Shown here piece after piece: positions 1 to 64,000 of a stretch of DNA of 64,000 bases. The notes beneath the pieces were generated by a model. The model searched no databases. It was not told where the DNA came from and saw nothing but the letters and a program-made list of their open reading frames with translations. The stretch lies in assembly GCF_036971445.1 (NCBI RefSeq), contig NC_091477.1:81220001-81284000 (forward strand), in the 5' to 3' direction. The translations under genes and the position numbers were made by a program. This stretch comes from Narcine bancroftii. Taxonomy: Eukaryota. The first letter of the stretch is position 1; the number at the start of each line of letters is the position of its first letter.

Positions 1-375
1 AACAAGAAGGGGAGGTGTCCTTGTACTCCTGTTAGGTAAAACATCATGAGATGGGAATGTACAGGGCTGTAACAAGATGTAAATGCATCCTTGTACTTAC
101 AAGATAAGAGAGACATTGATGGATTGAGAGGCAGGAAGCTAGCAGGGAAAGGATAGCAACAGTTTTAGTCATTGGACAAGTAATGATATGATGATGTTCT
201 AAGCACGTATCCAAGGGTATAAAAAATCACCATTTTGCTGATAACGGCAGAATGCATTCTCCGACTAACTTTGTTAGTCGCAAGTGTTACAATCCGGTAA
301 TAAAGAACAAAGAACCCTGATTTCGACTCAGCCTGGTGTTTGTCTCACTCATTCATGAACAAAGCAGACCTAACA
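1..375 (+). mobile_element. 3' part of an LTR (truncated by window start)
   Basis: TATAAAAAA ~218, perfect hairpin CGACTAAC-ttt-GTTAGTCG 262-280, AATAAA ~299, ends ...CCTAACA at 375; no visible similarity to the ERV LTR at 5599-6320. Confidence 0.6.
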
Positions 376-505
376 ACCTTCACTTCCAATTTACCCATTG
401 CTCTCACTTTACATTACCCATCTCCAACACATACCTTTCCTTTCTTGAATTCTCTATCTTAAGATGTAGATTGGCAGTCAATATTAATTACAGCCCTCTG
501 AGTCC
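376..505 (+). mobile_element. Penelope-like element RT fragment
   Basis: Translation FTLPISNTYLSFLEFSI..RLAVNINYSP resembles the PLE RT motif FTxxISxTxLPFLDxSV..RLxTxIxYKPTD. Confidence 0.55.
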
Positions 506-3290
506 GTCCAAGCCCTACTGTGGCAGGGCATCATTACACCCACTGCCTTCAACAGTCCCATTTGGCCCATCTGCAAAAAGAAATGGGATGATGACAGTGG
601 ACTATAGACACCTCAACAACTGTGCCCCCCCCCCCCCCCACCTTGCTGCCACCGTGCCCAACATAGTTATCCTAGTGGAGGATTTTGTAGGGTGCCTAGA
701 TAAGCCTTGGTATGCAGTGGTGGACTTAGCCCATGCCTTCTTTGCAATTCCTCTCCATCCTGTTTCCCCAAGAGAAATTAGCATTTACCTGGGACTGGAG
801 AGAATATACCTCAAGGCTATATTCATAGCCCCTCTGCAAGGCACGTCAGACACCATTGTTTCAAAGGCTAATCTCCTCCCTCAGGGAACATGGCTACTGT
901 TAATATTGATAAGGTGCAGGGCTCCAACCAGAATATCCTGTTCCTTGAAATACAATGGCACTCAGGCCTTCTTGATACTTCCAAGACTGACACGAATAAA
1001 ATTTAGAATTTTGCCGACCCCTCAAATAACAGGCACTCAGAGCATTGTGGGCCTCCTAGGTTATTGGAGGCAGCATATACCCCATCATACCATGCTCCTT
1101 AGACTACTCTATAGGGTCTCCTGTCACATTCTTATGGGACCTGAACAACAGGCTGCTTTTGAAATAGCAAAGCTAGCTGTTGAACAGGCACTGCCACTTG
1201 CTCCTCACCAGGCAAGTGTTCCTTTTGAATTACAGGTCTCAGCCAGTGAGACAGTCAATGAAAGGACCATGTGGCAGAAGATCCAAGGGTACAGAGTCCC
1301 ACTCAGTTTCTGGACAATATCTCTGCCTAAGCCGCCGCCTGCTACAGGCCTTTTGAGTGTCAGCTGCTTGCAGGCTATCTGGTGCTCCCCGCCACTGAAC
1401 ATCAAACAGGCACCAACCCCGTTGTTCTTCACCCCCACCTACCCATAACGCAATGGTTCAAGTCTTCCGATTCCACTCACAAAGAGGGCCGTGCCCAGTG
1501 GTCCTCTACAGTAAAATGGAAGTGGTATATCACCGACTGAGCTGAACTCGGTCCGGAAAGGGTCAGCCACCTCTATGAGCAGGTCACGTCCTTCCCATAG
1601 TCCCATGACCCAGCCCCACAAATCTGAAATCCAACCAATACTTCCACTCCCTTGACCTCAAACAAAAATTGCCCAACTGGTTCACAGTCAGCTCCAGCCA
1701 ATGAAAAGGAGGGAAGAAGCAACATTGGAAAGCGGTGGCACTTCATCCCACCTTTCTGAAAATGTAACCAAATAGGGAGCAGATGGGTCCAGTTAACTTA
1801 CCAAGCTGGCAGCAGTAATGCTCAAGCTATGGGACACCACTGGGCTGGTCCACATTTATACTGACTCAATGGTATGGCAGTGTATGTAGATGGTGCAGTG
1901 GCATGAAATGGAGTGGGAAATTCATGGACATTCCCTCTAGGGACAGGAACTGGCATTTCTTTTGGGACAAGACAATCCACAGAAAAATGTCAGCGCACCA
2001 CGTGGATGCCCATACCCACAAAAATATTGAGGAGGCTATACCCAACGCTGCTGTGGACTAGGTTGCCCAAATATGCTGTGCCATTGCTTTCCCAGATGAA
2101 ACCGACCTCTGAGTTAGTTGTGTGGGCACACTGCAAAAGTGGACATCTAAGGGCTAATGGCACACAGCATTGGGCAGAGAAATTCAAGGTCACCCTGACA
2201 TTGGATCAACTCAGGACCACTGTTGCTAACTGCCGTGTCAGCAGGTGAAGCCACAGGGTTGGTCAACAGTGCCGCCGGGTCACATACGCTGTGGCACAGG
2301 AGTGGATCACGTATGGCAAATTGATTATATCAGACTGCTCCCACATCAAAATAAAAAAAAACAAGATGCCCTGATGATGGTGGACACATACTCCAGTGCC
2401 CTAGTAGCAGTGCCCTATGAGAAGGCTGGCCAGAATAACACCAAAGATTGCAGTATCTCTCTTCCATCTATGGGGGTCCCTTGGGAGGAACAATTCGATC
2501 CGGGGCTAAAGCTAAGAACTGGGGTAATGAGGCAGGGATCTCATGGCTATTCTTTCCACTTACCTTATAACCCACATTTTTTTTTCACTTCACCTGGCAG
2601 CTCATTCCTTACTCGCATGACTCTCAGTGTGAAGAGGTTCCCCCAAATGTTCCCCTTAAACTTTTCCCCATTAACCCAACACCCATGTCCTCTGGTTTGT
2701 ATCTCACCTACCCTCAGTGGAAAAAGACCTACTCTATCTATACTGCTCATAATTTTGTATACCTCTATCAAATCTCCCCTCATTCTTCTATGCTCCAAGG
2801 AATAAAGTCCTAATCTGTTTAACCTTTCTCTGTAACTCAGTACTTGCAGTCCCGGCAACATCCAACTAAATTTTATCTACGCTCTTTCAATATCCCACAG
2901 GCATAGATCTATTTGAGAGAATGAACAGCCTTCTTCAGAAAACATATGCACACCAACACCCTCCCGCACACTTCAGGGTTGATTGAGCATGTTGCAACAG
3001 GCCATTGACCAGATGAATACACAGTCCACTGGCAAAGGGAGGGGGCCCCGTTCTGTCCCATCATCTGGCACACTTCCCACCTCCTAACCTGGAAGACATT
3101 GAACCCCCCCGAGACTGAGAACTCGGGGAGAATACAGATACGACAGGCACAAACAAGGTCCAGAAGGGAGAAGTTGTTATGCGCAGTCCCAGGGATACCA
3201 GTTGGGTCGCGATTCTGGGTCAAACTAACCCGTCTTATCTGCATACCTGACAGCTGACCCAACAAGAATGAGTCTGCTCCTCAACCCCTC
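506..3290 (+). pseudogene. pol: ERV pol (RT-tether-RNase H-integrase), frameshifted
   Basis: FNSPIWP, MTVDYRHLN, WYAVVDLAHAFFAIP, QGYIHSP, GLLGYWRQHIPH, FELQVS..PLSFW, KWKWYI..GPE, VHIYTDS, zinc-finger WAHCKSGH..C, WQIDYI..VDTYS, ERMNSLL, all ERV-L/S-type wording. Confidence 0.85.
2577..2893 (-). mobile_element. CR1 LINE ORF2 C-terminal fragment inserted in ERV integrase
   Basis: MLPGL..LSYRERLNRLGLYSLEHRRMRGDLIEVYKIM..TRGH; A-tail (T-run 2577-2585); flanking direct repeat CCCACA at 2571-2576 and 2894-2899. Confidence 0.85.
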
Positions 3291-7595: not shown

Positions 7596-10500
7596 GAGCC
7601 ATTGTGGCGATCTGGTGAACACCGGGCTTGGCACTGCACCTCTTCTGCCATGTCGGGAATTAGATTGGGCGGGGGGGGGGGGGGGGGGGTGTGGGGCATA
7701 TTCATTAGCATATTGTTACAGACAGCCTACAAGCTGTCCGCAAAAATGTCTGGAGCTGCCACAGGAAAAATTCCCGTCAGGAAATAGCTTCTAACTCCTG
7801 TCTGGAACTTTTAACACAGCCAGCGTTGCAGGAATTTTCTGAGAGATTCCCATCATGCAGGAGCAGTGTAAAAAGCATTTATTTTTGTTTCATCAAGAAA
7901 TAGCAAAAGCACAGGATACAACAAAGGCTGTAGGAGAAGACAAAATCTCAATACAGATTTGAAGCCCTGTGATCCACAACTATCTTAAACCATTTCATTA
8001 AAATTGCAACATTACAATACTAATATCTACCCAAAATATGGAAAATTGTCCAGGTATGGCCTATTCAAAAAAAATCAAAACAAATCCAATTACCGCTTAC
8101 GTTCCTCAAACAATTAATGATGGAAGGCATCATTGCAGTGATCTGATGGTTGGCTCCTCCCCCAGGCTCCACCCTCATCTTCCCATATATAATCCAGGTT
8201 TTCCATCTAAATCCAGAGCCCTACTGAAGACATTTGTAAGACCTTACCCTTTGTTATAAGCTAATAAAAGCGCGTGTTCTCCCTCCAGTTGTGAGAGCTT
8301 TTATTCGCGCTACAATTTTATTAGCTTATTAACAAAAAGATGGAGACACTGCTCAAACCGAGCATGACCTCTGTCCCCAAATGCTGCTGAGGAGTTTGCT
8401 TACTGGCTGGACTGCTTCCAGGCCTACCTGAACGTGACCATGACCAGGTGCGTGTTCAATACTGATGAACTTGAGGTCAGCCTTTGTTTCCAGTGTAGGG
8501 ACTAAGTGGTATGCAGTCATTCAGGACTGTGCAACCTATGATGCTGCCATTGAGGCTTTGTACTTGAAGTCGCAAAACGAGGTCCTAGTGAGATATCGAT
8601 TTGCTTTACATCACCAGCAGCCTGGAGAGACAATCGATGACTATCTGCTTGACCTGTGGACTCTTGCCAAGAAGTGCCAGTATGAAGTGGCTATCAGCCG
8701 TGTTCGTGAGGAAAAGTCACGGGGTCTGCTCGAGATATGTGAGGCAGTGACTACTTGAGTCAGGTAAGAAAGACTTGCCCAACCAAGTCCATTGAACAAG
8801 CCCAGCTCAAGGCCGACGACCTTGAGGCCAACAACAACACTCTTCCCTGTGATCCCTTCCCAGAACCGGCAGCCCTCTCTGCCCTTGACCTAATGGCAGC
8901 CACCTCCCATGCTAGAGAGCACTCCCGCACTAGGGAGTGCTTCTTCTGTGGTAGAAGCCAGCATCCTCGTGCTCGCTGCCCACCTATGGACTGCCTGCTC
9001 CAGCTGAGGGAAGAGGGGACACTGGGCAAAAGTCTGCCACGTGAAGAGAACACCTAGGAAATCCACAGTCTGCACAGATCCCAAGTCAACTCCAGCCACA
9101 AGCCATCACACTCAACCCGAAACTCACCAGAGCCTACCTGCTGCGCTACTCGCCAAAGGAGGATGGCAATGGGAAAATGGCACGAAAATCCTCGGCGGCC
9201 ATCTTGCCGCGATTTGAATTCGAATTTAGCACCATCGTCATCAGAGGAGGAGGAAGGGTGGCCACCTTGCCGAGCAACGAGGTCAACGTCATCTTGCCTG
9301 CCGGTGCATCAGTAAGGAGGAGATTGCTTGAGCAAGGAGGACTACGGAGTCTCCAGGGTCCTAGCATTGATGGTTCTGGACCAAGAAAGACCACATCAAC
9401 TAGCAACTCTATAGCGACTGTCAAGGTAAACGGACACCCAACTAGATGCTTAATTGACACTGGCTCTACAGAAAGTTTCATAGACTCTCAGACTGTTTGG
9501 GAATACAAACTTAAACTTTATCCTCGTAATTATCGTATATTTCTAGTGTCTCATTTGCACTCGACTCGTATCCAAGAACTATGTACTGCACATTTATCTT
9601 TTGAAGGGGGGAATTTTGTAAATTTCGGTTGTATGTGCTTAATGATTTCTGTGCTCCGGTACTGTTGGGACTTCTTGTGTCTCCTTAAAAGCATGACCTT
9701 GGAGTATTCTGGTCCCCTCCCTCCCATAACAGCTCAGAATGGAAGGCCATTAAAATCAAATCCCACATGCAGCCTCTCCACACTTATCGATCCCCCACCC
9801 CTCTTCCCAAACCTGTCTCCAGATTGCAAGCTGATTGCTACAAAGAGTAGGCGGTGCAGTGCCTCTGATTGGGAGTTCATAAAAATCAGTGACTCAATGC
9901 TTGTTCAATGAGAAAATCAATGAACCTATAGCTTGTGGAGAGCGCTAGTGGTTATAGTAAAAGATAAAAATAAGTTCAGGGTAGTAATTAACTAGAGCTA
10001 AACAATTAATCATTTCATACTCCTGGACGGATATCCCCTTCCTCGAATTTCAGATTGATATCTGAATTATATTGCGCAGTATTTGAGCATCAACCTGAAG
10101 CATGCCTATCACCAGCTGCCAATCCGTTCCGAGGACTGTCCCTATATTGTTTTTAAGGCAAACGGTCGTCTCTTTCAATTCCTGCGGGTCCCTCTTGATA
10201 TTACCGATGGGGTTTCTATCTTCCAGAGGCAGATGGACAGGATGGTGGATGAGTACAAGTTGAAGGCTACCTTCCCTTACCTCGATAATATCATCTGTGG
10301 CCACACCTTGGAGGATCATAACACGAACCTTCAGAGCTTTCTCCACGCGGCAAAATCCCTGAACCTACATGGTGAAGAATGGTATTATTGGCCCCAACCC
10401 CGATAGGATGCGCCCCCTTTTAGAACTCCCTATTCCAAGGACCATGAAAGCTTTGAGGAGAAGCCTGGGGTTTTTCTCATATTACGCCCAGTGGGTCCCT

Positions 10501-11436
10501 CAATACGCCGATAAGGTTCGCCTCCTTTTAAAATTCACTAGCTTTCCCCTCTTGGCTGAAGCCCAAATGGCTTTTACTTATGTCCAAAGCCACATTGCAA
10601 AAGCCACCATGCACGCAGTGGATAAGAATGTACCTTTCCAAGTGGAAAGTGATGCTTTGGATGTGGATCTGGCCGTTACCCTTAATCAGGACGGCAGGCT
10701 AGTGGCATTTTTCTCCCGGACCCTGCAAGGGCACGAGCTCTGGAATCCCTCTGTGGAGCAAGAGGTTCAAAGTCATTGTGGAAGCACTATCTGGCTGGTA
10801 TGAAATTTACACTCCTCACTAACCAGCGCGCTGTCACCTTTATATTCAATGACGTTGAGGAGCAAAATTAAAAATGACAAAATTGATAGGTGGAGGTCCA
10901 AACTCTCCACCTACAATTATGACATTGCCTTATTGAGCCTCCAGATGCCTTATCCAGAGGAAGCTGTGCCTCAGCACATACCGGCCAACTGCCATTTCTA
11001 CATAATAAGCTCTGCCATCCAGAGGATATCCAAATGGCTCACTTTGTCAAGGCACACACAATCTGCCCTACTCAATGGAAGATATCAGGGAAATGACCAG
11101 GTCCTGCCAGGTCTGCGCAGAGTGCAAGCTGTAGTTCTACCACCTCGTTAAGGCGCACCTGATAAAGTCATCCCAGCCCTTCGAATGGCTCACAAATGGG
11201 AACACATTGATGAGTACTCCCATGTCCAGATACCTCCACCTCCTCAGTTATCAAGGCCCTAGATTCTATTTTTACCCTGGTCGAGTATCCCAGCTATATT
11301 CATAACAACTGGGACTCATCATTTATGAGCAAGGAGCTACGTCAGTACCTGTTGGCAAGGGGCATCGCATCCAGCAGGACTACTAACTACAACCCCTGGG
11401 GGAATGAGCAGGTTGAAAAAGAAAATGCCATGGTCT

Positions 11437-12238
11437 TTCTTTTTTCTTTGGCTTGGCTTCGCGGACGAAGATTTATGGAGGGGGTAAAAGTCCACGTCAG
11501 CTGCAGGCTCGTTTGTGGCTGACAAGTCCGATGCGGGACAGGCAGACATGGTTGCAGCGGCTGCAGGGGAAAATTGGTTGGTTGGGGTTGGGTGTTGGGT
11601 TTTTCCTCCTTTGCCTTTTGTCAGTGAGGTGGGCTCTGCGGTCTTCTTCAAAGGAGGTTGCTGCCCGCCAAACTGTGAGGTGCCAAGATGCACGGTTTGA
11701 GGCGATATCAGCCCACTGGCGGTGGTCAATGTGGCAGGCACCAAGAGATTTCTTTAGGCAGTCCTTGTACCTTTTCTTTGGTGCACCTCTGTCACGGTGG
11801 CCAGTGGAGAGCTCGCCATATAACACGATCTTGGGAAGGCGATGGTCCTCCATTCTGGAGACGTAACCCACCCAGCGCAGCTGGATCTTCAGCAGCGTGG
11901 ACTCGATGCTGTCGACCTCTGCCGTCTCGAGTACTTCGACGTTAGGGATGAAAGCGCTCCAATGGATGTTGAGGATGGAGCGGAGACAACGCTGGTGGAA
12001 GCGTTCTAGGAGCCGTAGGTGATGCCGGTAGAGGACCCATGATTCGGAGCCGAACAGGAGTGTGGGTATGACAATGGCTCTGTATACGCTTATCTTTGTG
12101 AGGTTTTTCAGTTGGTTGTTTTTCCAGACTCTTTTGTGTAGTCTTCCAAAGGCGCTATTTGCCTTGGCGAGTCTGTTGTCTATCTCATTGTCGATCTTGC
12201 CAGTTTACCTATCTCGGCTGCACCATTTCATCAGATGC
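11437..12238 (-). mobile_element. 5'-truncated RTE (BovB-like clade) LINE with 5' inversion, inserted in Gypsy A integrase
   Basis: RLPKIVLYGEL..GAPKKRYKDCLK..C-terminal zinc finger; GAA/A-rich tail; 12-bp TSD ATGCCATGGTCT at 11425-11436 and 12235-12246. Confidence 0.93.
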
Positions 12239-12298
12239 CATGGTCTAGAAACTGTCAAATTGATCCTCAAGCCAAGAGGCCTTCCAGACTCATGCTCC

Positions 12299-12507
12299 CA
12301 GGATGTCCTACCCATAGCGCTCCACACCTTTCGGTCGCTACTCTGTACAGCGACCAATGTGACTCTTCAGGATATCCTACCCATGGCGCTCCACACTTTT
12401 TGGTCGTTACTCTGTACAGCGACCAATGTGACTCTTCATGATGCCCTACCCATGGCGCTCCACGACCTTTCGGTCGCTATTCTGTACAGCGACCAATGTG
12501 ACTCTTC
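12299..12507 (+). repeat. 69-bp x3 tandem repeat within integrase coding sequence
   Basis: Unit encodes QDVLPIALHTFRSLLCTATNVTL; three copies, the third with a 1-nt insertion. Confidence 0.92.
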
Positions 12508-13814
12508 ATGAACTTTTCCTCAATTTTGAAACGAGATCGGCATCGGGAACCACTGTCCCCACCTGGCTCACCACATCAGAAGCAAAACCGACACCCTGGT
12601 GGAGAGGGTGAGACTGCTCCATGCCAATTCCATGTACACCTACACGGAGTACCAGGACGACAGGGAAGACACCGTCTCTATCAAGGACATGGTACCCGCA
12701 GGAACAGAGAATCCATTGCCTCAGGTGACCCACGAGTTCCAGAACCCTTTCTTACCACCTCCAATCAGGACCTCAGGAGATTTGGATCAGGAGGAAGAGT
12801 CCTCCCCCTCCGTCATGGAAACAGAGCCCTAACCATCCACCATGCCTCCCCTACAAGGGGACCAGGAGACCCAAGGCCCACTGGTGCTGAGGCACTCCTT
12901 CAGGATTTCCAGACCCCTGTAACATTTAAATTGTATATATTCTGATTTTTTTTTTTACTGAGTCTGTGTTCTCTGTCTTCATTCACAGGCCATAATTTTA
13001 CAGGATGGGGTGAATGCAGTGAATGGAGATGCACTGGTGATGGGTTGTGCAAATGACAGACTCCTCCCCCAGGCTCCGCCCCCATCTACCCATAACCCAG
13101 GTTTCCAGCCTGAACCCAGAGCTCTACTGAAGACCCTTGTAAGACCCTATCCTTTGTTATAAGCTAATAAAACATGTGTTCTCCATCCAGTCGTGGGAGC
13201 TTTTATTCATGCTTCAATCAACAACACTGACATCAAAACGCAGTCGCTCACCAAAGACCTGCCCACTAAAACCACATTTGGGTTTTCTCAACACAATTCT
13301 TTTCCTGAACAGATTGCAGATTTGATCAAGCTGGGAACAAACACCTTAATTATAAAGGTTAGGCAACACTGACCTACTTTGATATCAAGACAGCAATTGA
13401 CTAAGAATGGAGTCAAGACACCCTGATAAAACTAGTCAGTGAGACAAAACTAGACAGGACATTACAATGATCAGAACCATATGTTGCACTCAGAAAGATG
13501 TTTCTATGGTTAGTGAAAGTTAATCTCAGTCTCAAGAAATTAAGTACCACATAATTACTTTAGCACAAACCCGAAAGCACAACATCTATATTTCTTTCAT
13601 CAATGACCTTTCTTCCAGGTCAGATGTAGGGTGTTGGTTGATAATTGCACTGTTAAATTTCATTTGCAACTCCTCAGAAAATGAAGCAATCTATGCGATA
13701 TTCTAGGTGTGGAGTGATAGGTGACAGCTAACACTCAGGTTACCAGTGATAGGCAATAACCATCTCCTACAACAGAGGTGAAGCACAGGATTCTGTTGAC
13801 ACCATGGTTAAGTG

Positions 13815-19557: not shown

Positions 19558-22500
19558 TCACGTGTGACGCCATAAGAACAAGACTTGGGCTTACAGATAT
19601 CGGACAGAGGATGAAGACTCAGAAGAAGAGATAAAGAGTAAACAAAGTACTAGAATTGCTATATCTATGAAAAGAAATGACTATTAGTGAGCTGTTTAAT
19701 GTGAAGGGGGAAATAAGTAGTGTTGGAGGCTGTCAACAAGACGAAGAAAAAATTAAATTAGAAAATTCAATGAAGAGAGTACAAGAGGTTATGCAGCATG
19801 TTGAAGATAGAGTTACCACTGAGGAAGATACTACTACTACCTTAACAATGAAGAATAAGAAGCTGCAACAAAAATTGGATGTATTAGAAAATTTTAGTGG
19901 GAGAAATAATGTTAAGATTGTGGGTCTTAAAGAAGGTGTAGAAAAACAAGATACTCCTGCTTTTCTTTTGGAATGGCTCTCTGAAATGTTGGGAGCTGAA
20001 AATTTTGATCATCCTATAGAGATTGAAAGAGCACAGAGCTTTCAGACGTCCAGCTCTCTAATTCAAAACTCACATTCTATACTGGTAAAATGTCTTTGTT
20101 TTCAAGATAGAGAGAAGATTTTGTCAATGATAGCAGAAGATGAGATTGGCAGGGGTTCTGCTTGAGTACGAAGGTGCAAGAGTCTTATTTTTCCTGATAC
20201 AAGTGCTGATCTACTTAAAAGAGGAAGAGAATTCAACCCAGTTAAGAACGTTTTATGGGAGAAGGGATACATATCTGTTCTGCGCCATCCAGCGATGTTG
20301 AAGATTTTTATACCGGGGTGAAGGAAACAAATTATTTATGAATATGATGGAAGCAGTAGAGTATGCTTAGAGTCTCCCAATTATTCAGAAGGAGTGAAGA
20401 ATGAGGACTTCTTTTCATCCTGGTTGATTTTTGACGAATTGCTCGCTTTGCTTTCACAGCAAGGAGTGATTTAAAATGCTTTACATTGATTTATTCTTTT
20501 CTATCCTTATATTTATCTACTATTAATGTGATGTATGTTTTTTTTAACTGAAGTTTGAAGTAAGATTTGATGGTCAAATGTATCAGAGGGTTAGGGAGAG
20601 TAGGGTTCTGACCTCTGGTGCGTCATGTGGGTAGTCGTGACTCTGGTCAAGGCCCGTAAAATATTTTCTCTCAACGCCTATTGAGAGGAATTTTTTTTCT
20701 ACTTTTTTTTTAATAGTTATATGTATTTTTATATACAAGTTTCTTTCTTTTTTCTATTGCATCTGGATTGTCGGAGGGGAGGTTCTTGAGTATGCTGGCT
20801 TTTTTCTACAATAACATTAAGGAGTGAAGAATTACAGGCAGAGGTGGAAGAAATATTGAAACAGGAAGATGAGAATGTGCTTAAACTCAAATTATATTGT
20901 TAATGGTTTAAATGGGACCGTGAAGACGAAAAGGGTTTTGAGGTATTTTTAAAAAGTTAGGTATAGATATAGTTTTTTTTACAAGAAACGCTTCAAACAG
21001 AAAAAGAACATTTGAAGTTAAAAAGAGACTGGGTTGGACATGTAGTAGCTTCCTTTAATTCTAAAGAGGAGTGGTTATTTTAATTAAAAAGAATATACCA
21101 ATTAAAATACAAAATGCAGTGCTAGATCCAGCAGAAAGCTATGTAACAGCTCATTGTCAAATACTTTCAGAATTATGGACATTTCTTAATATCTACACAC
21201 CAAATGCAGATTATGAGAGATTTATCAAAGAGACCTTTATGAATTTAGCAGAAGCACATGACAATATTTTGATAGGAGGAGATTTAAGTTTTAGTTCAGA
21301 TCAAATCTTAGATAGAACTACAAGGGGAATGTCAAGAACAAAAGCAGCAAAAGCAACCTTGGTTTAGATGAAAGATCTGAATTTAATAGATGCTTCGAGA
21401 AAAATTCATCCTAGAGAAAGAGACTATGTGGCGGCAAGCTACTAGGCAGGCGACTCAGCCCCGCTTGTAATCCACGCGGCGGGGTAGCCAGCCAAAATGG
21501 CGCCATCAGAGGTTTCCCCTTCTCAGCACCGGGCTCAGAAGCCCGTGCTGGGGGACCACATGACGCCCGAGTGACGTCGGCGCCCCCCAGCACGGTTCCC
21601 AGCCAGGTCCGGGCTGGGAGTACAAGTCCATCCCAGAAGCCAGCAATAAACCAGTTTTCTGCTCACTGAGCTCAACCCGTCTGGTTGTGTGTTCTTTCAG
21701 TAGCAGTGTAGCTGCTGCTACAACTATTCCTTTTATTCAAATAGGCATAATTCTTATTCTAGAATAGATTTGTTTTTTAATATCTGTTTAATTAAAAGGT
21801 AGGATATTGAGTATGGAATATAAAATGAAAATATTGTCAGATCATTCATCTTTGTTAATGACAATTACAAATTACAAATAAAAATTGGTATATAGATGGA
21901 GATTAAACTCAACATTATTAAAAAGGAAAGATTTTTATGACTTTGTTAGAAATCAAATTCAATTGTGTGATACGAACAAACAAGGTCGAGAATAAATTTC
22001 TAATTTGGGATGCATTAAAAGTGTATTTGAGAGGTCAAATTATAAGATGTGGAGATGAAATGGGCACTTTTTTTAAATACACACTCTATTTGGTCATGTT
22101 CAAAGGTTAGAATTTTTTGGGAGGATCAGGGAATGTTTTTGGGACAAATTACTCGTATTACTTTTCTACAAAATCCAGACCTATTTTTGTTGGGGAACCT
22201 TGCAGGAACAAGACCTAAATTTACTAATTCATCAAGATAAATTTGTTAAAATTGCTTTCGTGGTGGCAAGAAAGTGTATCAAAGTGACCTGGAAATCAGA
22301 CATATACTTAGGTATGGAAAGATGGCATTCGGAGATACAAGCATGTATTCCCTTAAAGAAAATTATTTTCAATTTAAGAAATAAATATTCTCTCCTTGTG
22401 CAGATCTGGAGCCCATATATGCAAAGGTTAGGAATAATTTTTTTTAAAAAGTACTTCTGGCCTCCTAAGTCAGTATTAATCTTCTTCCCTGAAAGTCACA

Positions 22501-41934: not shown

Positions 41935-44900
41935 AGCCCTTTTTATAGAGTGACACTGCATTGAAGCCGGCTCAATGAGGAAAAAAAAAAGGACATCCCT
42001 TTTAAGGTGAAGGTCTACAAAGCTGATTGTGGTGTACTGTTAGCCAGAATCAGACACACACAAGGTAAAGACTGGACAACAGACTTTAATCCACAAAGAC
42101 TTCCACAGAGCCAGGCTGGCTGTGGCTGCAGCAACTCTGAGTGAGGCCTCAGGAGGCCGGCGCAGGCTTATATCCCGGTGGGTGATTGACACTCGACTGG
42201 GTGGGGCTTGATCCATTCAGGCCGATTGATTGACAGCACCCGTAGTGCTGCAGGTATAGAGGTTGCCCCCTGCAGTAGGCCGGTGGTGTACCACCACATT
42301 CACCCCCTTCTTTAAAATTGTCCTGGGGAGGGGGGAGGGCAGCAACAAGGAATCGCACCCACTATGTACATACAATATTTACAGGTTGAGACGATTGGGC
42401 GGCCGCTGGGGTCTCTGTGACCGTCGTAGGACTGGCTCCTGGTCACTGGTCAGATGGGAACTGGGGGGGGGGGGGGGGAGGGGCTGGCAGCAGGGGTGTG
42501 TGGCTGGTCGTATTGGATGGGTGGGGGGGCCGGTTCATCTTGTAAGGCTGAAGTGGGCCACTGGCGGTCAAGGAGGCCCTGTGTGCCCCATAGCTGCCTG
42601 GGGACAGGGATGTATGCCCAGTCAGCGTTGAGTTGGAGGGTGGTGTGGTGTGTGCTCCTGCTGGTGACAGGTCCCTGGTTGAGACGGTGTCCTCCCTGCC
42701 ACTGCTGAACCCAACGTAAGCATAGTTATGGTTTGCATGAAGGAGGAAAATCTGCTCTACCAGGGCTTCAGCCTTGTGTGTCCGTACATGCTTACGCAGA
42801 AGCACCGATCCCGGGGATGTGAGCCATGCTGGGAATGTCATTCCAGTCGCCGACCTCCTGGGGAATGAGAACAGGCATTCGTGAGGGGTCTTGTTGGTAG
42901 CCAAACACAGCAGTGACCGAATGGCACGGAGTGCCTCGGGCAGGGCGTCCTGCTAGTACTCAACGGCCCACCCTTTTGACTTGAGAGCCAGGAGGACTGC
43001 CTTCCAGACTACCCAATTCTCACGTTCCACTTGCCCGTTGCCTCTTGGGTTATAGCTTGTCGTGCGACTGGTCGCAATGCCCCTCGCCATCAGGTACTGG
43101 TGCAGCTCGTCACTCATGAAACTAGACCCCTGGTTGTTGTGGATGAAGGTGGAGTAGCCAAACAGTGAAAATCTGCCCCAAGGCCCTGATGACGGTATCC
43201 GTGGAGGTGTCCGGACAAGGGATGGCGAAAGGGAAGCATGAATACTCGTCCACTACCGTGAGGAAGTAGACGTTTCGGTTCATGGAAGGCAGGGGCCCTT
43301 TGAAGTCCATGACAAGATGCTTGAAAGGCCGAGTAGCATTTACAACGTGGGCTTGGGTGGGGGGGGGGGGGGGGGGGGGCTGAAGAAGCGGGGTTTGCAC
43401 TCCGCACAGACCGACAGGCCTCGGTCATGTCCCTGACGGTGTACGGCAGATTTCAGGACTTAAAGAAATGGTACAACCAGGTGACGCCAGGATGGCAGAG
43501 AGAGAGACTAAAAATGCCTGCAACCTGTCATCATGAATAGCTGTATTCATGCTGTAGGTTGCCAACTGGACTCTCCAGTGCAGGATCTTGTCTTTCTTGA
43601 TCTTGCTCTTGTGGGTAGTGTTAAACATGGTCTGTGAGGAGCGTGAATCTCCTGCCGGCCAGGTAGTGGCGCCAGTGGCAGACCGCTTCCACAATTGCCT
43701 GGGCCTCCTCTTCAATGGCTGAGTTCCCTAGCTTGGAGCCGTGGGGGGTCCTGGAGAAGAAGGCGACGGGGCGTCCCCTTTGGTTGCGGGTAGCAGCGAG
43801 AGCCACCTCGGAGGTATTGCTCTCCACCTGGAAGGGGAGTCTTCATCCACAGCCTGCATTGTGGCATCCGCGATGTCTTGCCTGATGCAGGTGAAGGCTG
43901 CCTGTGCCTCAGGTGGGAGGGGAAAAAGTTGTGGCTTGAGCCAGAGGGCGGACTTTGCCCGAGAAGCAAGGAACCCACTGCGAATAATAAGAGAACAGGC
44001 CCAGGAACCTGCGGAGGGCCTTTAGCTTGAGGGGGGTGGAGGGGTAACTCCATTAATGGGCGCATCCTTTCTGGATCTGGGCCTACGAATCCATGGGCCA
44101 CGATGTATCCCAGGATGGCAAGTGGGTGGTGCTGAACACACACTTCTCCTTGTTGTAAGTGAGGTTCAGCTCCGTGGCCATCTGGAGGAATTTTTCCAGG
44201 TTAGCATCGTGGTCCTGCTGGTCACGGCCACAGATAGTGACGTTATCCAGATATGGAAACGTCACCTTCAGCTTGTGCCGGTCCACCATGTGATCCATCA
44301 CCCGCTGGAAGACAGAGACCCCGTTCGTGACCTCAAAAGGAACGTGGCGGAACTGGTACAGGCACCCGTCTGCCTCAAAGGCAATGTAGGGCTTGACCTT
44401 CGGGTGGATAGGAATTTGGTGATACGCAAACTTCAGGTCAATCGTGGAGAAAACCCGGTAGTGGGCTATCTCATTGACCATGTCGGTGATCCTTGGCAGG
44501 AGGTAGGCATCCAGCTGGGTGTACCGATTAATGGTCTGGCTGTAATCCACAACTATCCTCGGCTTACTTTCCTCTTTGACCACCAGGACTTGGGCTCTCC
44601 AAGGGCTGTTACTGGGCTCTATAACGCCTTCCGCAGGAGTCGCTGCTCCTCCGCCTTGATGAAGTCCCTGCCTGCAGTGCAATAGCGCCTACTTCTGGCG
44701 GCAATTGGCTTGCAGCCTAGCACAAGATGTGGAAAGAGTGCCAGTGGGGTGATGCGTAGTGTGGAGAGGCCGCTGGTTGGCCGGGGCTGGTAGGTTGGCG
44801 AGCTTTGCAATGTGAGTGGAGGTTGGGGTAAGGGTGACACTCTGCAGGTGGCACTGGAAATCCAGGCCCAGGAGGAGTGGTGCGCAGAGTTTGGGCATGG

Positions 44901-47494
44901 CCAAGAGCCTGAATCCTGTGTAAGTCTCCCCTCCCAACGTTATATCGACCGAGGAGCACCAACAGTCTTATCCTTGGCGGCGAGGGCGATCGAGCAGGTA
45001 GTGGGGTGGACCTTTAACCTTAGAGAGCGGGCCACGCTCAGGTGAATGAAGCTCACAGTGCTGCCACTGTCCAACAGGCACTTTGTTACCTGCCCATTGA
45101 CTCGCACGTCCATCATCGAGCGCCCGAGGTCGTGGGGAATGTCCCTGGTCAGCGTGGTGGCAGCCAGGAGCGTCTCGGAGTTGTCACTATCCGGAGGGGT
45201 GGGGAGTGTCAATAGGGCGGCCTGGTCATCGCCCGTGTTGACCACGTCGTTCTCAATGTCGTCGGGGGCCCTCCACGTCGGGTGCTATTGGCCCAAGATG
45301 GTGGGACATGTGGGGGGACGCTGCATGGCTGGCCTCCTTCCCCAGTTGTGTCCGCTGCACTGCGGGAAATGACTTCATCACGGCTGGCGACAGTGACGTA
45401 GTTACGTCAGTCAGAAGTAATGTCACGCCATGAGCTGGAAGTGATGTCGCTGTAGTTCTCAGTGAGCAGTGCCAGCGAGGGCGGGGGCTGGTGCAGATAC
45501 TCAGGGCACATGCTGTGACGGTCGCTGGTGGGGCCGGATGTTGCGTGGTCCAAGTCGGTGAAGGGGGAAGTCGTCGCGGGGACAATGGCGCCGCCCGGCA
45601 CGCACACATAGGGGGGTCCGCAGGGGAGGACATAGAAGACCGCTGAGCTGCCGGCAGGTTTACAGAGGCACACTTTTGCAAAGTGGTCTTTCTTGCCGCA
45701 TTGGGAACAATACTGGTTGCTAGCTGGGCAGTTTTGGCACGATCGTCAATCTGACCCACACCAGGACCCACAGTACTTACAGGGACGCCGGGTGCCTGCC
45801 GCAGCTACGTTCTCCTCCCCAGCTTCGCTTGGGGCTGCAGCTGGAGTGTGAGAAGCCCATGAGGGAGCCTGGGAGAACTTGGAATCGAAGGTTTTGACGT
45901 GCAGGGCTGCTGCTTCCATGGTTTGGACCACTTCCACAGTCCTGGTTAGGGCATAGATGTTGTCTTCCAGCAGCTTCTGCCGGATGGCCCTCGAGCATAG
46001 CCCTCAGATGAAGGTGTCCCAGATCAGCCTCTCAACCTCCTCTACACCTACCCCAGGTTCAGCTAGACATGGTCGGGCCAACTCTCGCAAGTGTCTCAGG
46101 TAAGACTCAGCCATCTCCCCGGGTTGCTGGGCTTGGATGTTGAGGAAGTACATTGATGGGGGGCTTGTACAAGTTCTCGAGAGTGTCCATTGCGCTCTTG
46201 TACGTAGAACAGCCTTTGGTTACCTGGAAGGCGCGGGGACCCGCTTTGAATGGAGTAGGACCAACCTCTTCTGATTGGAGTCCAGGATGTCGACCTCGTC
46301 TGCCTTGACCATGTACTGCCAGATCTCGAAGCATGACTGGGCTTCCGGGTGGTGTGGGTAAACCTTGAGGCTCCCTGAGCGCAGGAGTTTTTCCATAGCC
46401 ACCGTGGGAAAATTTGTGGATTAAATTGTGGTGCGCTGTTAGCCAAAATCAGACACGCACAAAGTAGACTGTACAACAGGCTTTAATCCACAAAGACTTC
46501 CACAGAGCAAGGCTAGCTGTGGCTGCAGCAACTCTGAGTGAGGCCTCGGGAGGCCGGCGCAGGCTTATATCCCGGAGGGTGATTGACACCCAACCGGGTG
46601 GGGCTTGATCCATTCAGGCTGACTGATTGACAACCGGCCAGGTGTTGTCCTGTCTTCTTACACTCCTGAAGGTACAGAGGTTGTCCTCTGCAGTAGGCCG
46701 GTGGTGTACCACCACACTGATCCAGTGTTGCCTTTATGGAAAGCAGCTTTGGAAGCCATCCTCCAGAGCTGAGGGAGGTGGGCGAGTGGTGCAGTAGTGC
46801 TGCCTGTCGACATGACATCAAACATATGCACCAAGCAATGGCCATCTTTGTTACCCATAATCCCCCATGCAGCTGACATTGCTCTGTCAGTGCCAGGGCC
46901 AGGGAAATGAAGAGCAATTTCAGCTGCGTGGGGGATTATGGGTAATGAAGACAGCCATTGATCCCGCATTAAAGGAAAAAGAGGTTCTCGTTATAAAACC
47001 TGAGGCTCCTTCTTCCAATCTTCTGCCCAGCATTTACAGGTGGCAGCTTGAGTTATTTGAGGTCATTTCACTTTTGTAATCAATCTGATTTTCTGCTGTT
47101 TGTGGTATTTAATGTGCTCTTGGGTATTTTAATAAAACGTGATCAACACTGAAATCAAGGCTGAGCTCCACAGTGGGACACATATGCATGGCCCTCGGTC
47201 TCTCCATAATCAGCAGCACACTAGGCTGTGACACCCCGAGCTATTCCCAGCACCAGTGAGAGCCCTGGATGGTGGCTCCTGGGTCACAGGCTGACTGCAT
47301 AATTGTGACATCATTAGCCTGCCCCTTTACAGCCACTTGCAGCTGCACTGCCTTTATGGAGGAGTGCACCCTCAGGACAGATCGGAGTTCGCGTGTAGAA
47401 TCCACCCTCTGAGCTTTAATGAAGATAAGTTAAGCAATGTAAAGGCAGAGAATATCCGCATTTACACTTGCTATTTTCTCACTATAAAAAGGCC
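41935..47494 (+). mobile_element. Harbinger-like family 2 element split by Gypsy B
   Basis: TIRs AGCCCTTTTTATAG and CTATAAAAAGGCC; the halves (41935-42027, 46717-47494) are collinear with 18030-18638. Confidence 0.65.
42028..46716 (-). mobile_element. Gypsy LTR retrotransposon B (decayed; YLDN lineage)
   Basis: 5' LTR 46427-46716, 3' LTR 42028-42298; perfect 5-bp TSD CTGAT; PPT AAAGAAGGGGGTGAA; gag MEKLLR; PR LLDSGSTVSF; RT SPWRAQV..IDLKFAYHQIP..FPYLDNVTICG; RH GRPVAFFSRT; IN MDFKGPLP..VDEYS. Confidence 0.95.
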
Positions 47495-47538
47495 GTAAAA
47501 TATCACAAAGAAAGGACCACTTCTAGTCTACCATGTTG

Positions 47539-48916
47539 TCTTCTTCTTCTTTGGCTTGGCTTCGCGGACGAAGATTTATGGAGGGGGTAAAAAGTCCACG
47601 TCAGCTGCAGGCTCGTTTGTGGCTGACAAGTCCGATGCGGGACAGGCAGACACGATTGCAGCGGTTGCAAGGGGAAATTGGTTGGTTGGGGTTGGGTGTT
47701 GGGTTTTTCCTCCTTTGCCTTTTGTCAGTGAGGTGGGCTCTGCGGTCTTCTTCAAAGGAGGTTGCTGCCCGCCAAACTGTGAGGCGCCAAGATGCACGGT
47801 TTGAGGCGTTATCAGCCCACTGGCGGTGGTCAATGTGGCAGGCACCAAGAGATTTCTTTAGGCAGTCCTTGTACCTTTTCTTTGGTGCACCTCTGTCACG
47901 GTGGCCAGTGGAGAGCTCGCCATATAACACGATCTTGGGAAGGCGATGGTCCTCCATTCTGGAGACGTGACCCATCCAGCGCAGCTGGATCTTCAGCAGC
48001 GTGGACTCGATGCTGTCGACCTCTGCCATCTCGAGTACTTCGACGTTAGGGGTGTAAGCGCTCCAATGGATGTTGAGGATGGAGCGGAGATAACGCTGGT
48101 GGAAGCGTTCTAGGAGCCGTAGGTGGTGCCGGTAGATGACCCATGATTCGGAGCCGAACAGGAGTGTGGGTATGACAACGGCTCTGTATACGCTTATCTT
48201 TGTGAGGTTTTTCAGTTGGTTGTTTTTCCAGACTCTTTTGTGTAGTCTTCCAAAGGCGCTATTTGCCTTGGCGAGTCTGTTGTCTATCTCATTGTCGATC
48301 CTTGCATCTGATGAAATGGTGCAGCCGAGATAGGTAAACTGGTTGACCGTTTTGAGTTTTGTGTGCCCGATGGAGATGTGGGGGGGCTGGTAGTCATGGT
48401 GGGGAGCTGGCTGATGGAGGACCTCAGTTTTCTTCAGGCTGACTTCCAGGCCAAACATTTTGGCAGTTTCCGCAAAGCAGGATGTCAAGCGCTTTAGAGC
48501 TGGCTCTGAATGGGCAACTAAAGCGGCATCATCTGCAAAGAGTAGTTCACGGACAAGTTTCTCTTGTGTCTTGGTGTGAGCTTGCAGGCGCCTCAGATTG
48601 AAGAGACTGCCATCCGTGCGGTACCGGATGTAAACAGCGTCTTCATTGTTGGGGTCTTTCATGGCTTGGTTCAGCATCATGCTGAAGAAGATTGAAAAGA
48701 GGGTTGGTGCGAGAACACAGCCTTGCTTCACGCCATTGTTAATGGAGAAGGGTTCAGAGAGCTCATTGCTGTATCTGACCCGACCTTGTTGGTTTTCGTG
48801 CAGTTGGATAATCATGTTGAGGAACTTTGGGGGACATCCGATGCGCTCTAGTATTTGCCAAAGCCCTTTCCTGCTCACGGTGTCGAAGGCTTTGGTGAGG
48901 TCAACAAAGGTGATGT
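47539..48916 (-). mobile_element. RTE LINE, 5'-truncated, with open RT reading frame (ORF 47601-~48915)
   Basis: FVDLTKAFDTV, GVKQGCVLAP, LLFADD, C-terminal C2H2-like motif; (GAA)n tail; nearly identical to 11437-12238. Confidence 0.95.
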
Positions 48917-61450: not shown

Positions 61451-64000
61451 TGCGGGCACACCTCTAGGCAGGTGAACCGGCCCCGCTTGTAATCCAGACC
61501 GCGGGGCAGCCTGCCAAAATAGCGCCGTAGGGGGTTTACCCTTCTTCTCAGCACAGGGTTCAGAAGCCTGTGCAGGGGGACCACGTGACACCCGGGTGAC
61601 ATCAGCACCCCTCAGCGCAGTTCTCAGCCAGGTCCGGGCTGGGAGTACAAGTCCAGCCCAGCAGCCTGCAATAAATCAGTTCTGCTCACTGAGCTCAACC
61701 CGTCTGGTTATGTGTTCTTTCAGTAGCAGTGTAGCTGCCACTACAATTGGTGACACTGACTGGTTCAAACATCTTTGAACCCATCATGAGCGAACCTGGG
61801 ATCACTGCTATAGCCGTCAAGCTGCCTGAATTCTGTGTTCAGGAGTCGGAGAGCTGGTTCGGCCACGTGGAGGCTCAGTTTCACCTCTGCCAGATTTCAT
61901 CTGACACGACCAAATTCTACCATGTGGTCGCTGCCCTGGACCAGGCCACCGCCAAGTGCATGCTGTACCTCATTCAGCACCCACCCGCCGAAGACAAATA
62001 CGAGACCATCAAGTGAGTGCTCACCAAATTCCTCGGACTAACCAGGCACCAGCGTGCCACTCGGATGCTGCACCTCGACACCCTGGGGGACAGGTCCCCA
62101 ATGGAGCTAATGGACGAGATGCTCACGCTCATGGGTGATCACACCAACTGCCCACTCTTCGAGTGCATTTTCCTCGATCATCTGCCCGAGGACATCCGGC
62201 CGTTACTGGCCCAAGAGAGCTTTACCGAGCCGAGGAAGGTTGCTCAGAAGGCCCAAGAGCTATGGCTCGAGCGATTCCCGGAGGGCTCGGCGGTCCAGCA
62301 GGTCACGAGGCACAGGCATGACCACAACAAGCACGACCCTAGCACTGAGGTAGAGCATCCGGCCCCTGCAGGGGCCACTAAGAGCATAACCAGGGTCACG
62401 GCATCCGCTCCAGGCCTCTGCTTCTACCACCAGCACTGGGGAGCCAAGGCTCAGAAGTGTCGTCAGCCCTGCTCATTCCAGGGAAACGAGCAGGCCGGCC
62501 GCTGTTAATGGCTGCGGCGGCTGGCCAAAGACACAGCCTCCTCTACCCACGGGACTCAGTCAGCGGCTGGCGGTTCCTCGTCAACAATGGGGTCCAGATC
62601 TGGAATTCTTCAGCCAGCTTCTCCGCCCACCAGAGCATAAGTATAGTGCTTTTGACTCTGAGTTACTGGGCATGTACCTGGCAGTGCGGCATTTCCACTA
62701 TTTCTTGGAGGGGAGGACTTTTACCATCTTCACTGACCACAAACCACTCATCCAGGCACTAGTGATGGCGAAGGACCCCTGGTCGGTCCACCAGCAGCGT
62801 CACCTCTCCGTGTCGGAATTTACCACCGACATTCGGCACAAGGCGGGGATGGTCAACGTGGTTGCCAATGCACTCTCACGACCGACCATCTGCGAGCTGA
62901 TGCCTGGCCTCGACTTCGACCAGCTCACCCGGGACCAGAAGACCGATGAGGAGACACGAGCCTTCAGGACTGCCATTACGGGCCTACAGTTCCGGGACCT
63001 CCCGACTCGGAGCGGTGGAAGCACCATCCTGTGTGATGTCTCCATGGGCACCCTGAGGCCAGTGGTTCCCCAGCAGTGGCGCAGGCAAGTCTTCCATCAC
63101 ATCCACGACCTTTCGCACCCTTCCATCTGGTCCACGGTCATGATGGTGGCACAGCGGTTCGTCTGGCACAGGCTGCGGAAGCAGATCACGGGCTGGGCCA
63201 GAACATGCACCCATTGGCAGATGTCCAAGGTACACAGGCACACCAAGGCGCCCGTGCATGTATTCAAGCATGTCCAGGAACGGTTCAGCCACATTCACGT
63301 GGACATAGTCGGGCCCTTACTCATTTGCCGGGGCAACCGTTACCTGTTCACGGTGGTGGACCACACCACTCGGTGGCCCAAGGAGATCCCAATGCCTCCA
63401 CGAACACCTGCTCCCGAGCACTGTTGCATGGTTGGGTCGCCTGGTTCGGTGTTCCGAATCACCTCACCAGTGATCGAGGTGCCCAGTTCACCTCTGCATT
63501 CTGGGCACAGCTCGCCAACAGGTTGGGGATCGAGCTACACCACAGCCTATCACACACAAGCCAATGGGCTGGTCGAGCGTCTGCACCGGCACCTTGAGTC
63601 AGCACTTATGGCCCCCCTTACCGGTCCCAACTGGGTGGACGAATTGCCTTGGGTGATCCTGGGCATCCGCTCCATGCCGAAGGAGGATCTGCAGGTGTCA
63701 TCAGTTGATCTGGTCTACAGCGCATCGCTGGCACTTCCTGTGAATTAATCAACGCACCTCACAACCCCCAGCAGTCTGTTTCCCCACCTCCAGACCCGCT
63801 GGGACTCCTCCGCAGAGACACGGAAAATGGCCATCTCACGTCCCCAGCGAGCTGCTTTCCGTAGAGTACGTTTTTATTCAGCGTGGCCCATCCATGGCAC
63901 CTCTGCAGAGACCTTATGAGGGGCCGTACAAGGTTGTCCAGCTTTCATGGTCTACGTTCACACTGGACATCGGCGGCAGGCAGGAACTGTTTACTGTGGA
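61451..64000 (+). mobile_element. CsRn1-like Gypsy element: 5' LTR, gag, partial PR/RH, integrase; RT deleted; runs off the window
   Basis: LTR 61451-61745; tRNA-Trp-like PBS TGGTGACACTGAC; gag AVKLPEF..WF..EAQF..TKFYHVV with CHCC finger CFYHQHWGAKAQKCRQPC; RH FTDHKPL; IN HIHVDIVGPL, YHTQANGLVER, RPYEGPYKV. Confidence 0.9.

Follow-up and report, generated by a model that had tools for sequence, protein, structure and literature searches.

The active site of reverse transcriptases (RTs), with its three aspartates, is generally regarded as invariant. As the presence of YxDD commonly serves to decide whether an element is intact or dead, families with YxDN risk being scored as defective. The locus analyzed here, a 64,000 bp stretch of the Narcine bancroftii genome (contig NC_091477.1, positions 81,220,001-81,284,000, hereafter the window), contains two Gypsy-type elements in which this motif reads YLDN. 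It therefore raises the questions of whether the Asn was inherited or arose by decay after insertion, whether an enzyme that carries it works, and whether it is linked to the primer-binding site (PBS) of these elements, which is not of the tRNA type.

The two elements and their clade

The features of the two elements, termed A and B, are listed in Table 1. YLDN had been annotated in both and was confirmed at both positions, the codons being TAC CTC GAT AAT in A and TAT CTG GAT AAC in B. The canonical YxDD with its three aspartates is absent from A and B, as the third position is Asn. The YLDN of a relative from the same clade (P0018) aligns to the YLDD of Ty3 RT (PDB 4OL8, E-value: 5e-43), indicating that Asn occupies the place of the second Asp of YxDD. 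The RT regions of A and B share approximately 69% DNA identity over the best-aligned 213 bases. Both elements are old, decayed integrated copies, with stops and frameshifts in their coding frames and LTR pairs that are approximately 83% identical. That both had once transposed, as proposed in the initial annotation, is borne out by these LTR pairs, by the flanks of A and by the target site duplication (TSD) of B.

Table 1. Coordinates of the features of elements A and B in the window.
Feature	Position	Strand	Details
Element A	8134-13216	+	LTRs TG...CA, purine tract, flanks ATCAT/ATCAA
A 5' LTR (TG...CA)	8134..8314	+	~83% identical to 13015-13216
A LTR arm with AATAAA, complementary to PBS; predicted self-primer segment	8256..8269	+	14/14 Watson-Crick pairs; fold z -4.25
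A PBS, directly 3' of LTR, non-tRNA-type	8315..8338	+	stem of at least 10 bp in 20/30 family copies
A gag ATG	8340	+	
A decayed gag-pol (Gag, protease, RT, RNase H, integrase), RTE LINE inside	8340..12900 (3' end approximate)	+	
A RT motif YLDN	10278..10289	+	Asn in 28/30 family loci
A polypurine tract	12995..13014	+	
A 3' LTR	13015..13216	+	flanks ATCAT (8129-8133), ATCAA (13217-13221)
Element B	46716-42028	-	LTRs TG...CA, purine tract, perfect ATCAG duplication
B 5' LTR	46427..46716	-	83.7% identity to 3' LTR
B LTR arm ending in ATTAAA, complementary to PBS	46482..46494	-	13 Watson-Crick pairs
B PBS, directly 3' of LTR	46413..46426	-	
B gag ATG	46396	-	
B open RT segment	44083..44688	-	Pfam RVT_1, E-value 4.6e-20
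B RT motif YLDN	44242..44253	-	Asn in 30/30 family loci
B polypurine tract	42299..42318	-	
B 3' LTR	42028..42298	-	TSD ATCAG on both sides

Several other repeats were observed in the window. A 5'-truncated RTE-type LINE with 12 bp direct repeat flanks lies within the integrase region of A (bp 11428-12238, reverse strand) and is 97% identical to an RTE copy at bp 47531-48305, while the C-terminal region of the A integrase contains three copies of a 69 bp unit (bp 12299-12511). A third, different Gypsy-type element, presumably CsRN1-like, is found at bp 61455-64000 (forward strand), where it encodes RNase H and integrase domains and continues past the end of the window; a related LTR-like copy is present at bp 21433-21723 (forward strand). 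Degraded retrovirus-like pol pieces at bp 321-2805 (forward strand) include frames that by eye are RT-like and integrase-like, and a Pfam search with the first of these frames gave no match.

A and B are members of a single animal Ty3/Gypsy clade that occurs in cartilaginous fish, corals, nematodes and arthropods. Three features place this clade in Ty3/Gypsy (Metaviridae). First, the Pol order is protease-RT-RNase H-integrase: the Pfam domains of clade member P0052 are a protease (residues 277-366), RVT_1 (456-613), RNase H (674-799) and rve (890-986), and RVT_1 was also identified in B. Second, the window elements and their relatives have TG...CA LTRs, a polypurine tract and short target duplications within the 4-6 bp expected of the group. 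Third, the RT is nearest to the Ty3 type, with the best PDB matches being to Ty3 RT (E-value: 5e-43), above caulimoviral and retroviral RTs. Full-length members contain a single ORF of approximately 1200 aa (1191-1253 aa) that encodes protease, RT, RNase H and integrase together with a Gag containing two zinc knuckles, and clade LTRs are approximately 155-300 bp in length. The listed Pfam domains of 120 homologs did not include a chromodomain, nor did those of P0052, and no clade relatives were found in the viral contigs searched. Members with a named source are known from corals, rays, sharks, a damselfly, spiders and the nematodes Trichinella and Trichuris, the closest named homologs among those listed being from Hypanus, Mobula and Scyliorhinus. 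Three clade proteins (P0012, P0058 and P0247) are labelled in NCBI as proteins of bacterial metagenome-assembled genomes and probably represent animal DNA in metagenome bins.

We take the best name for this group to be the Cigr-1 clade of Ty3/Gypsy, going by its architecture. Cigr-1 of Ciona intestinalis, described by Simmen and Bird in 2000, reportedly has 245 bp LTRs, one 3.6 kb ORF and a Gag like that of sea-urchin SURL/Mag. The elements studied here share the short LTRs, the single gag-pol ORF of approximately 1200 aa and the Mag-like Gag, features that are not unique to the clade; on this assignment, made by architecture only, the clade is probably Cigr-1, and it could alternatively match one of the MolGy clades. 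There was no Ciona-named protein among the homolog matches listed, and the paper supplements searched contained neither a Cigr-1 sequence nor sequence motifs of the clade. A clade named Cigr-1 is reported from molluscs (PMC6238403) and annelids (PMC8556966) in the available portions of these papers, which make no mention of YxDN or of the PBS of this clade. Troyka and the Kuafuorterviruses, considered from the accessible parts of PMC12440569 and PMC11673190, were rejected: unlike the window elements, Troyka has CG..CG ends and 3 bp TSDs.

Inheritance and history of the asparagine

At the B-like loci of the genome (the best 30 of 150 scored matches, window copy included), the third active-site position is Asn in 30/30 cases, encoded by AAC in 21 and by AAT in nine, and all 30 retain the catalytic Asp that lies upstream. 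The 30 A-like loci have Asn in 28 cases, Ile in one and a gap in one. Asp is thus found at this position in 0/60 genomic loci (30 A-like and 30 B-like).

These counts bear on whether the Asn is a product of post-insertion decay, such as CpG deamination. The copies are indeed old, as seen from the divergence of their LTRs, and CpG decay is evident one codon earlier, where the first Asp codon has become AAY after CTC in 9/30 A-type loci and five loci carry the reciprocal CTT. Through this adjacent decay, nine of the 30 A-family loci (L141-L170) read YLNN or YFNN, in contrast to the fixed Asn of the next codon. We nevertheless find it hardly conceivable that decay produced the Asn itself, for three reasons. 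First, no Asp was found in any of the 60 loci. Second, the codon before the Asn codon is GAT in 30/30 B-like loci, so that CpG context cannot explain the Asn. Third, corals and rays have ORFs encoding Asn that are intact and present in multiple copies.

We therefore regard it as almost certain that Asn is the inherited state of both families. The initial annotation had reached the same view, that Asn is a lineage character and not post-insertion decay, from the different synonymous codons used by A and B. Its conclusion of inheritance stands, but the codon argument taken alone is weak because AAC and AAT both occur within each family. It had also named YLDD in the family sequences as the observation that would speak against inheritance, and none of the 60 loci has the required Asp.

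Of 356 longer homologs, 120 were listed, and in these the third position is Asn in 89, Asp in 29 and another residue in two. When 149 of 150 representatives (from 50% clustering) were scored, the 116 rows with at least 44% identity comprised 65 with Asn and 51 with Asp, and the 33 representatives with 37% identity or less, which a clear gap separates from the former, all had Asp (Asn in 0/33). Nearly all of the 116 rows carry the SPWRAQ / DYSQTIN / PFGVTNG signature where the region is covered. An RT-RNase H tree was built from the 150 of 268 proteins that were long enough, with the trait column dropped; as in the other trees, outgroup rows were unnamed and included no named reference sequences. 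The clade was recovered with a support of 100, with 80 Asn, 45 Asp and one Lys among the 126 rows inside it and Asp in 24/24 rows outside. The column is therefore D or N in 125/126 clade rows and never E. Among the homologs listed, those named as coming from nematodes and arthropods carry Asp and those from sharks and rays carry Asn; the branch holding the shark and ray proteins has Asn in all 17 rows.

The deepest branches of the clade all carry Asp, which, as read from these trees, is the ancestral state of the clade. All Asn rows fall inside a nested subclade with 96% support. The trees show approximately 10-14 changes between Asp and Asn, numbers that come mostly from FastTree and could be inflated by FastTree artefacts or by recombination between families. 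The first tree has 10 changes, 7-8 of which are forced by starred branches, and the RT-RNase H tree (150 proteins) has 14. An IQ-TREE analysis of 38 rows, hand-picked to span Asp/Asn changes, gave 10 changes (eight forced), and a one-change history was recovered in 0% of 200 bootstraps. Sister families that differ in this residue are up to 86% identical.

Activity of the asparagine-type enzyme

In six pairs among four YLDN families, whose contigs may be collapsed assemblies, dN/dS across RT-RNase H is 0.032-0.050 at a dS of 0.7-2.4. In three Asn-type elements on long contigs (L064, L071 and L073), the ORFs are intact and 1217-1253 aa in length, the LTRs are 99.0-99.6% identical and the TSDs measure 5 bp; the identical repeats of L061-L063 were excluded from this count of young LTRs because their contigs look like collapsed assemblies. 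The remaining two RT aspartates are kept in 78 and 79 of 80 Asn rows, and the RNase H acids are also kept. As the Asn families show both purifying selection and recent intact insertions, their enzyme is, as far as sequence evolution can tell, very probably functional.

The closest experimental parallel comes from Ty1. According to the available part of PMC2148107, Ty1 RT with the D211N change still polymerises, with a 223-fold lower kpol and a preference for Mn, while D211E and changes at the other two aspartates leave the enzyme dead. The same source reports that D211N abolishes transposition, which is restored to 5-10% by RNase H suppressors, and it cites similar flexibility for Ty3 RT. The initial annotation had thus described the Ty1 result correctly (polymerisation, with no transposition unless suppressed near RNase H). 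The clade column, D or N and never E, fits the Ty1 pattern in which D211N is active and D211E is inactive.

The failure of Ty1 D211N to transpose (PMC2148107, in the part available) also suggests an alternative, in which the Asn RTs are weak or dead and Asp-type relatives supply the enzyme that copies their elements in trans. Such relatives are present throughout the clade, and the recent intact Asn elements could in principle have used their RT. Speaking against it, Asn families show a dN/dS of 0.03-0.05 across RT-RNase H at high dS, whole subclades are Asn, such as the 17-row shark and ray branch, and the 60 genomic loci include no Asp-type copy. We consider this alternative quite improbable and favour an Asn enzyme that works in its own right.

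If so, the reduced kpol and lost transposition of Ty1 D211N imply that compensation is needed in the Asn families. A comparison of RNase H residues, proposed in the initial annotation, did not locate it: across RT and RNase H in eight sister pairs, no residue followed Asn beyond the permutation null, the best column scoring 5, a value reached in 460/1000 random flips in this low-power comparison. In an independent-pairs test, which had only four pairs on starred branches and no power, the matches from a naive Fisher test vanished. At twenty columns of the RT-RNase H alignment, clade members are at least 90% fixed for a state that is rare in the outgroup, examples being RAQ following SPW, Ser following DY and, after the RNase H TD, Gln in place of His. 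These clade-wide substitutions are candidates for a background that permits Asn. Under the mechanism that we propose, the two invariant aspartates would likely carry catalysis and the third position would likely need only a side chain of the size of Asp. The cost that the Asp to Asn change has in Ty1 may then have been removed by a permissive background that became fixed early, either in the clade or in its Asn-bearing subclade.

The primer-binding site and its relation to the asparagine

In both A and B, the bases 3' of the 5' LTR are not of the tRNA type. From one base past the terminal CA, the PBS is the reverse complement of an LTR stretch ending in TAAA that lies 45-55 nt upstream. A stem of at least 10 bp is formed in 28 of the 38 elements with upstream sequence (shuffle means of 3-7); among the other ten, seven are mismatched in the same arm, two have no usable LTR sequence and one (L111) is unexplained. 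Pairing between arm and PBS averages 13.1 of 14 within a family versus 9.1 across families (one locus from each of 22 families chosen by eye), a comparison in which the optimised register used for the own-family score favours own over cross-family pairing. Up to four pair types occur per position at +5 to +10, showing that arm and PBS co-vary. The paired LTR stretch is 10-19 nt in length and ends in (W)TAAA, and in nearly all families pairing begins one base past the terminal CA. At the end of the arm, AATAAA or ATTAAA is present in 13/22 families; the arms of the other 9/22 contain no canonical hexamer. Leader fold z-scores are mixed (-4.25, -1.73, -5.06, -1.31, -2.27 and -1.32).

The G-C pair at PBS +11 (bp 8325 of the window; loci L061-L139) is invariant in 22/22 families while its neighbours vary. 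Located 10 bp from the predicted primer end, it may serve RT or RNase H as a recognition point. We also considered the arm's invariant G as a transcription start giving a 10 nt primer, which is disfavoured because pairing continues through +12 to +17 in 14-20 of 22 families. A conserved hairpin directly after the LTR arm was rejected, as the mean stem was 4.0 versus 3.7 in shuffles.

The primer of Tf1 is 11 nt in length. In A and B, TATA-like motifs precede the end of the arm by 83-88 nt, a spacing seen in these two elements only, and no conserved TATA position was found across families. Because pairing is often longer than 11 nt and TATA-like motifs lie upstream, the primer may derive from a position other than the very start of the transcript, unlike that of Tf1. 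A PBS complementary to the element's own LTR is known to act in self-priming in Tf1 and has been proposed to do so in Tj1, Sushi, Tcn1 and TAR (PMC4600332 and PMC6317226, in the portions available). By analogy, the elements of this clade probably prime themselves from their own RNA in a Tf1-like manner: the duplex of LTR arm and PBS would be cut 3' of the arm, probably by RNase H as in Tf1, to give the primer for minus-strand DNA.

The arm could have another use, as the duplex may serve mainly to hide the poly(A) signal of the 5' LTR, with the primer coming from elsewhere, such as a trimmed 3' end of the element RNA. This would account for the hexamer in 13/22 families and for TATA-like motifs that, in A and B, put the start well upstream of the arm, and the 3' LTR transcript carries the same arm. 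Yet the nine families without a canonical hexamer pair equally well, and pairing that starts one base after the CA, as in nearly all families, has the register that a primer should have. One role does not preclude the other, and we consider hiding of the signal as the main function to be a minor possibility next to self-priming.

The initial annotation had suggested that the Asn enzyme co-evolved with this priming structure. In its strict form, in which the primer duplex requires or selects an Asn active site, this is unlikely. Asn is found only inside the clade with this PBS, all 17 Asn-type (YxxN) families examined have it (13-14 of 14 pairs), and the Asp families pair slightly less well (10-13 pairs, n = 5). 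However, a self-complementary PBS is present in 5/5 YxDD families, three of which (L068, L109 and L125) branch outside the subclade (96% support) to which all Asn rows belong, indicating that the priming site is older than the Asn. Asp also recurs often among Asn relatives of up to 86% identity, in approximately 10-14 interchanges over the clade, and the PBS is not lost. The motif and the PBS are thus phylogenetically uncoupled, an outcome that had been named at the outset as counting against the idea. A weaker link may exist, in which Asn is permitted by clade-wide changes that accompanied or followed the priming mode.

Taken together, we put at roughly three in four the probability that A and B are decayed copies from an animal clade in which most sampled families have Asn, that the Asn RT is functional, and that LTR-derived priming, which would predate the Asn, is independent of it. 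Within this reading, the Asn state itself is real and lineage-wide, and it is probably functional. A more far-reaching version is doubtful and is offered only tentatively: a lineage with two catalytic carboxylates and a third position free to drift between Asp and Asn, which primes on its own poly(A)-signal sequence inside the transcript, so that one duplex both hides the 5' poly(A) signal and supplies the primer, in a mode independent of that of Tf1 and built differently. The literature searched, with most subscription papers, Repbase and GyDB outside its coverage, yielded no description of natural YxDN RTs in LTR elements or of an LTR-complementary PBS in this clade.

Like Tf1, Tj1 and Sushi, the elements of this clade have a PBS that complements their own LTR and not a tRNA. 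They differ from the chromoviruses Tf1 and Sushi, which carry a chromodomain after the integrase, in that none was present among the clade Pfam domains listed. They differ from Tf1 also in an arm that ends in (W)TAAA, often with a poly(A) hexamer, that is 10-19 nt in length and that may lie inside the transcript and not at its 5' end. With its self-pairing PBS, the clade would join the few LTR elements known to be self-primed, as an animal lineage that does not belong to the chromoviruses. With regard to the RT, Ty3 provides the closest solved structure and Ty1 D211N retains polymerase activity. In contrast to these laboratory mutants, in which D211N does not transpose, Asn in the clade is the natural majority state of families that are under selection and recently inserted. 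Natural Asp and Asn sister enzymes of up to 86% identity let the role of the residue be tested without engineering, which bears on the question of why Ty1 D211N retains polymerisation but loses transposition. Given the Ty1 and Ty3 mutants, tolerance of Asn is plausible, but its repeated natural interchange with Asp is surprising.
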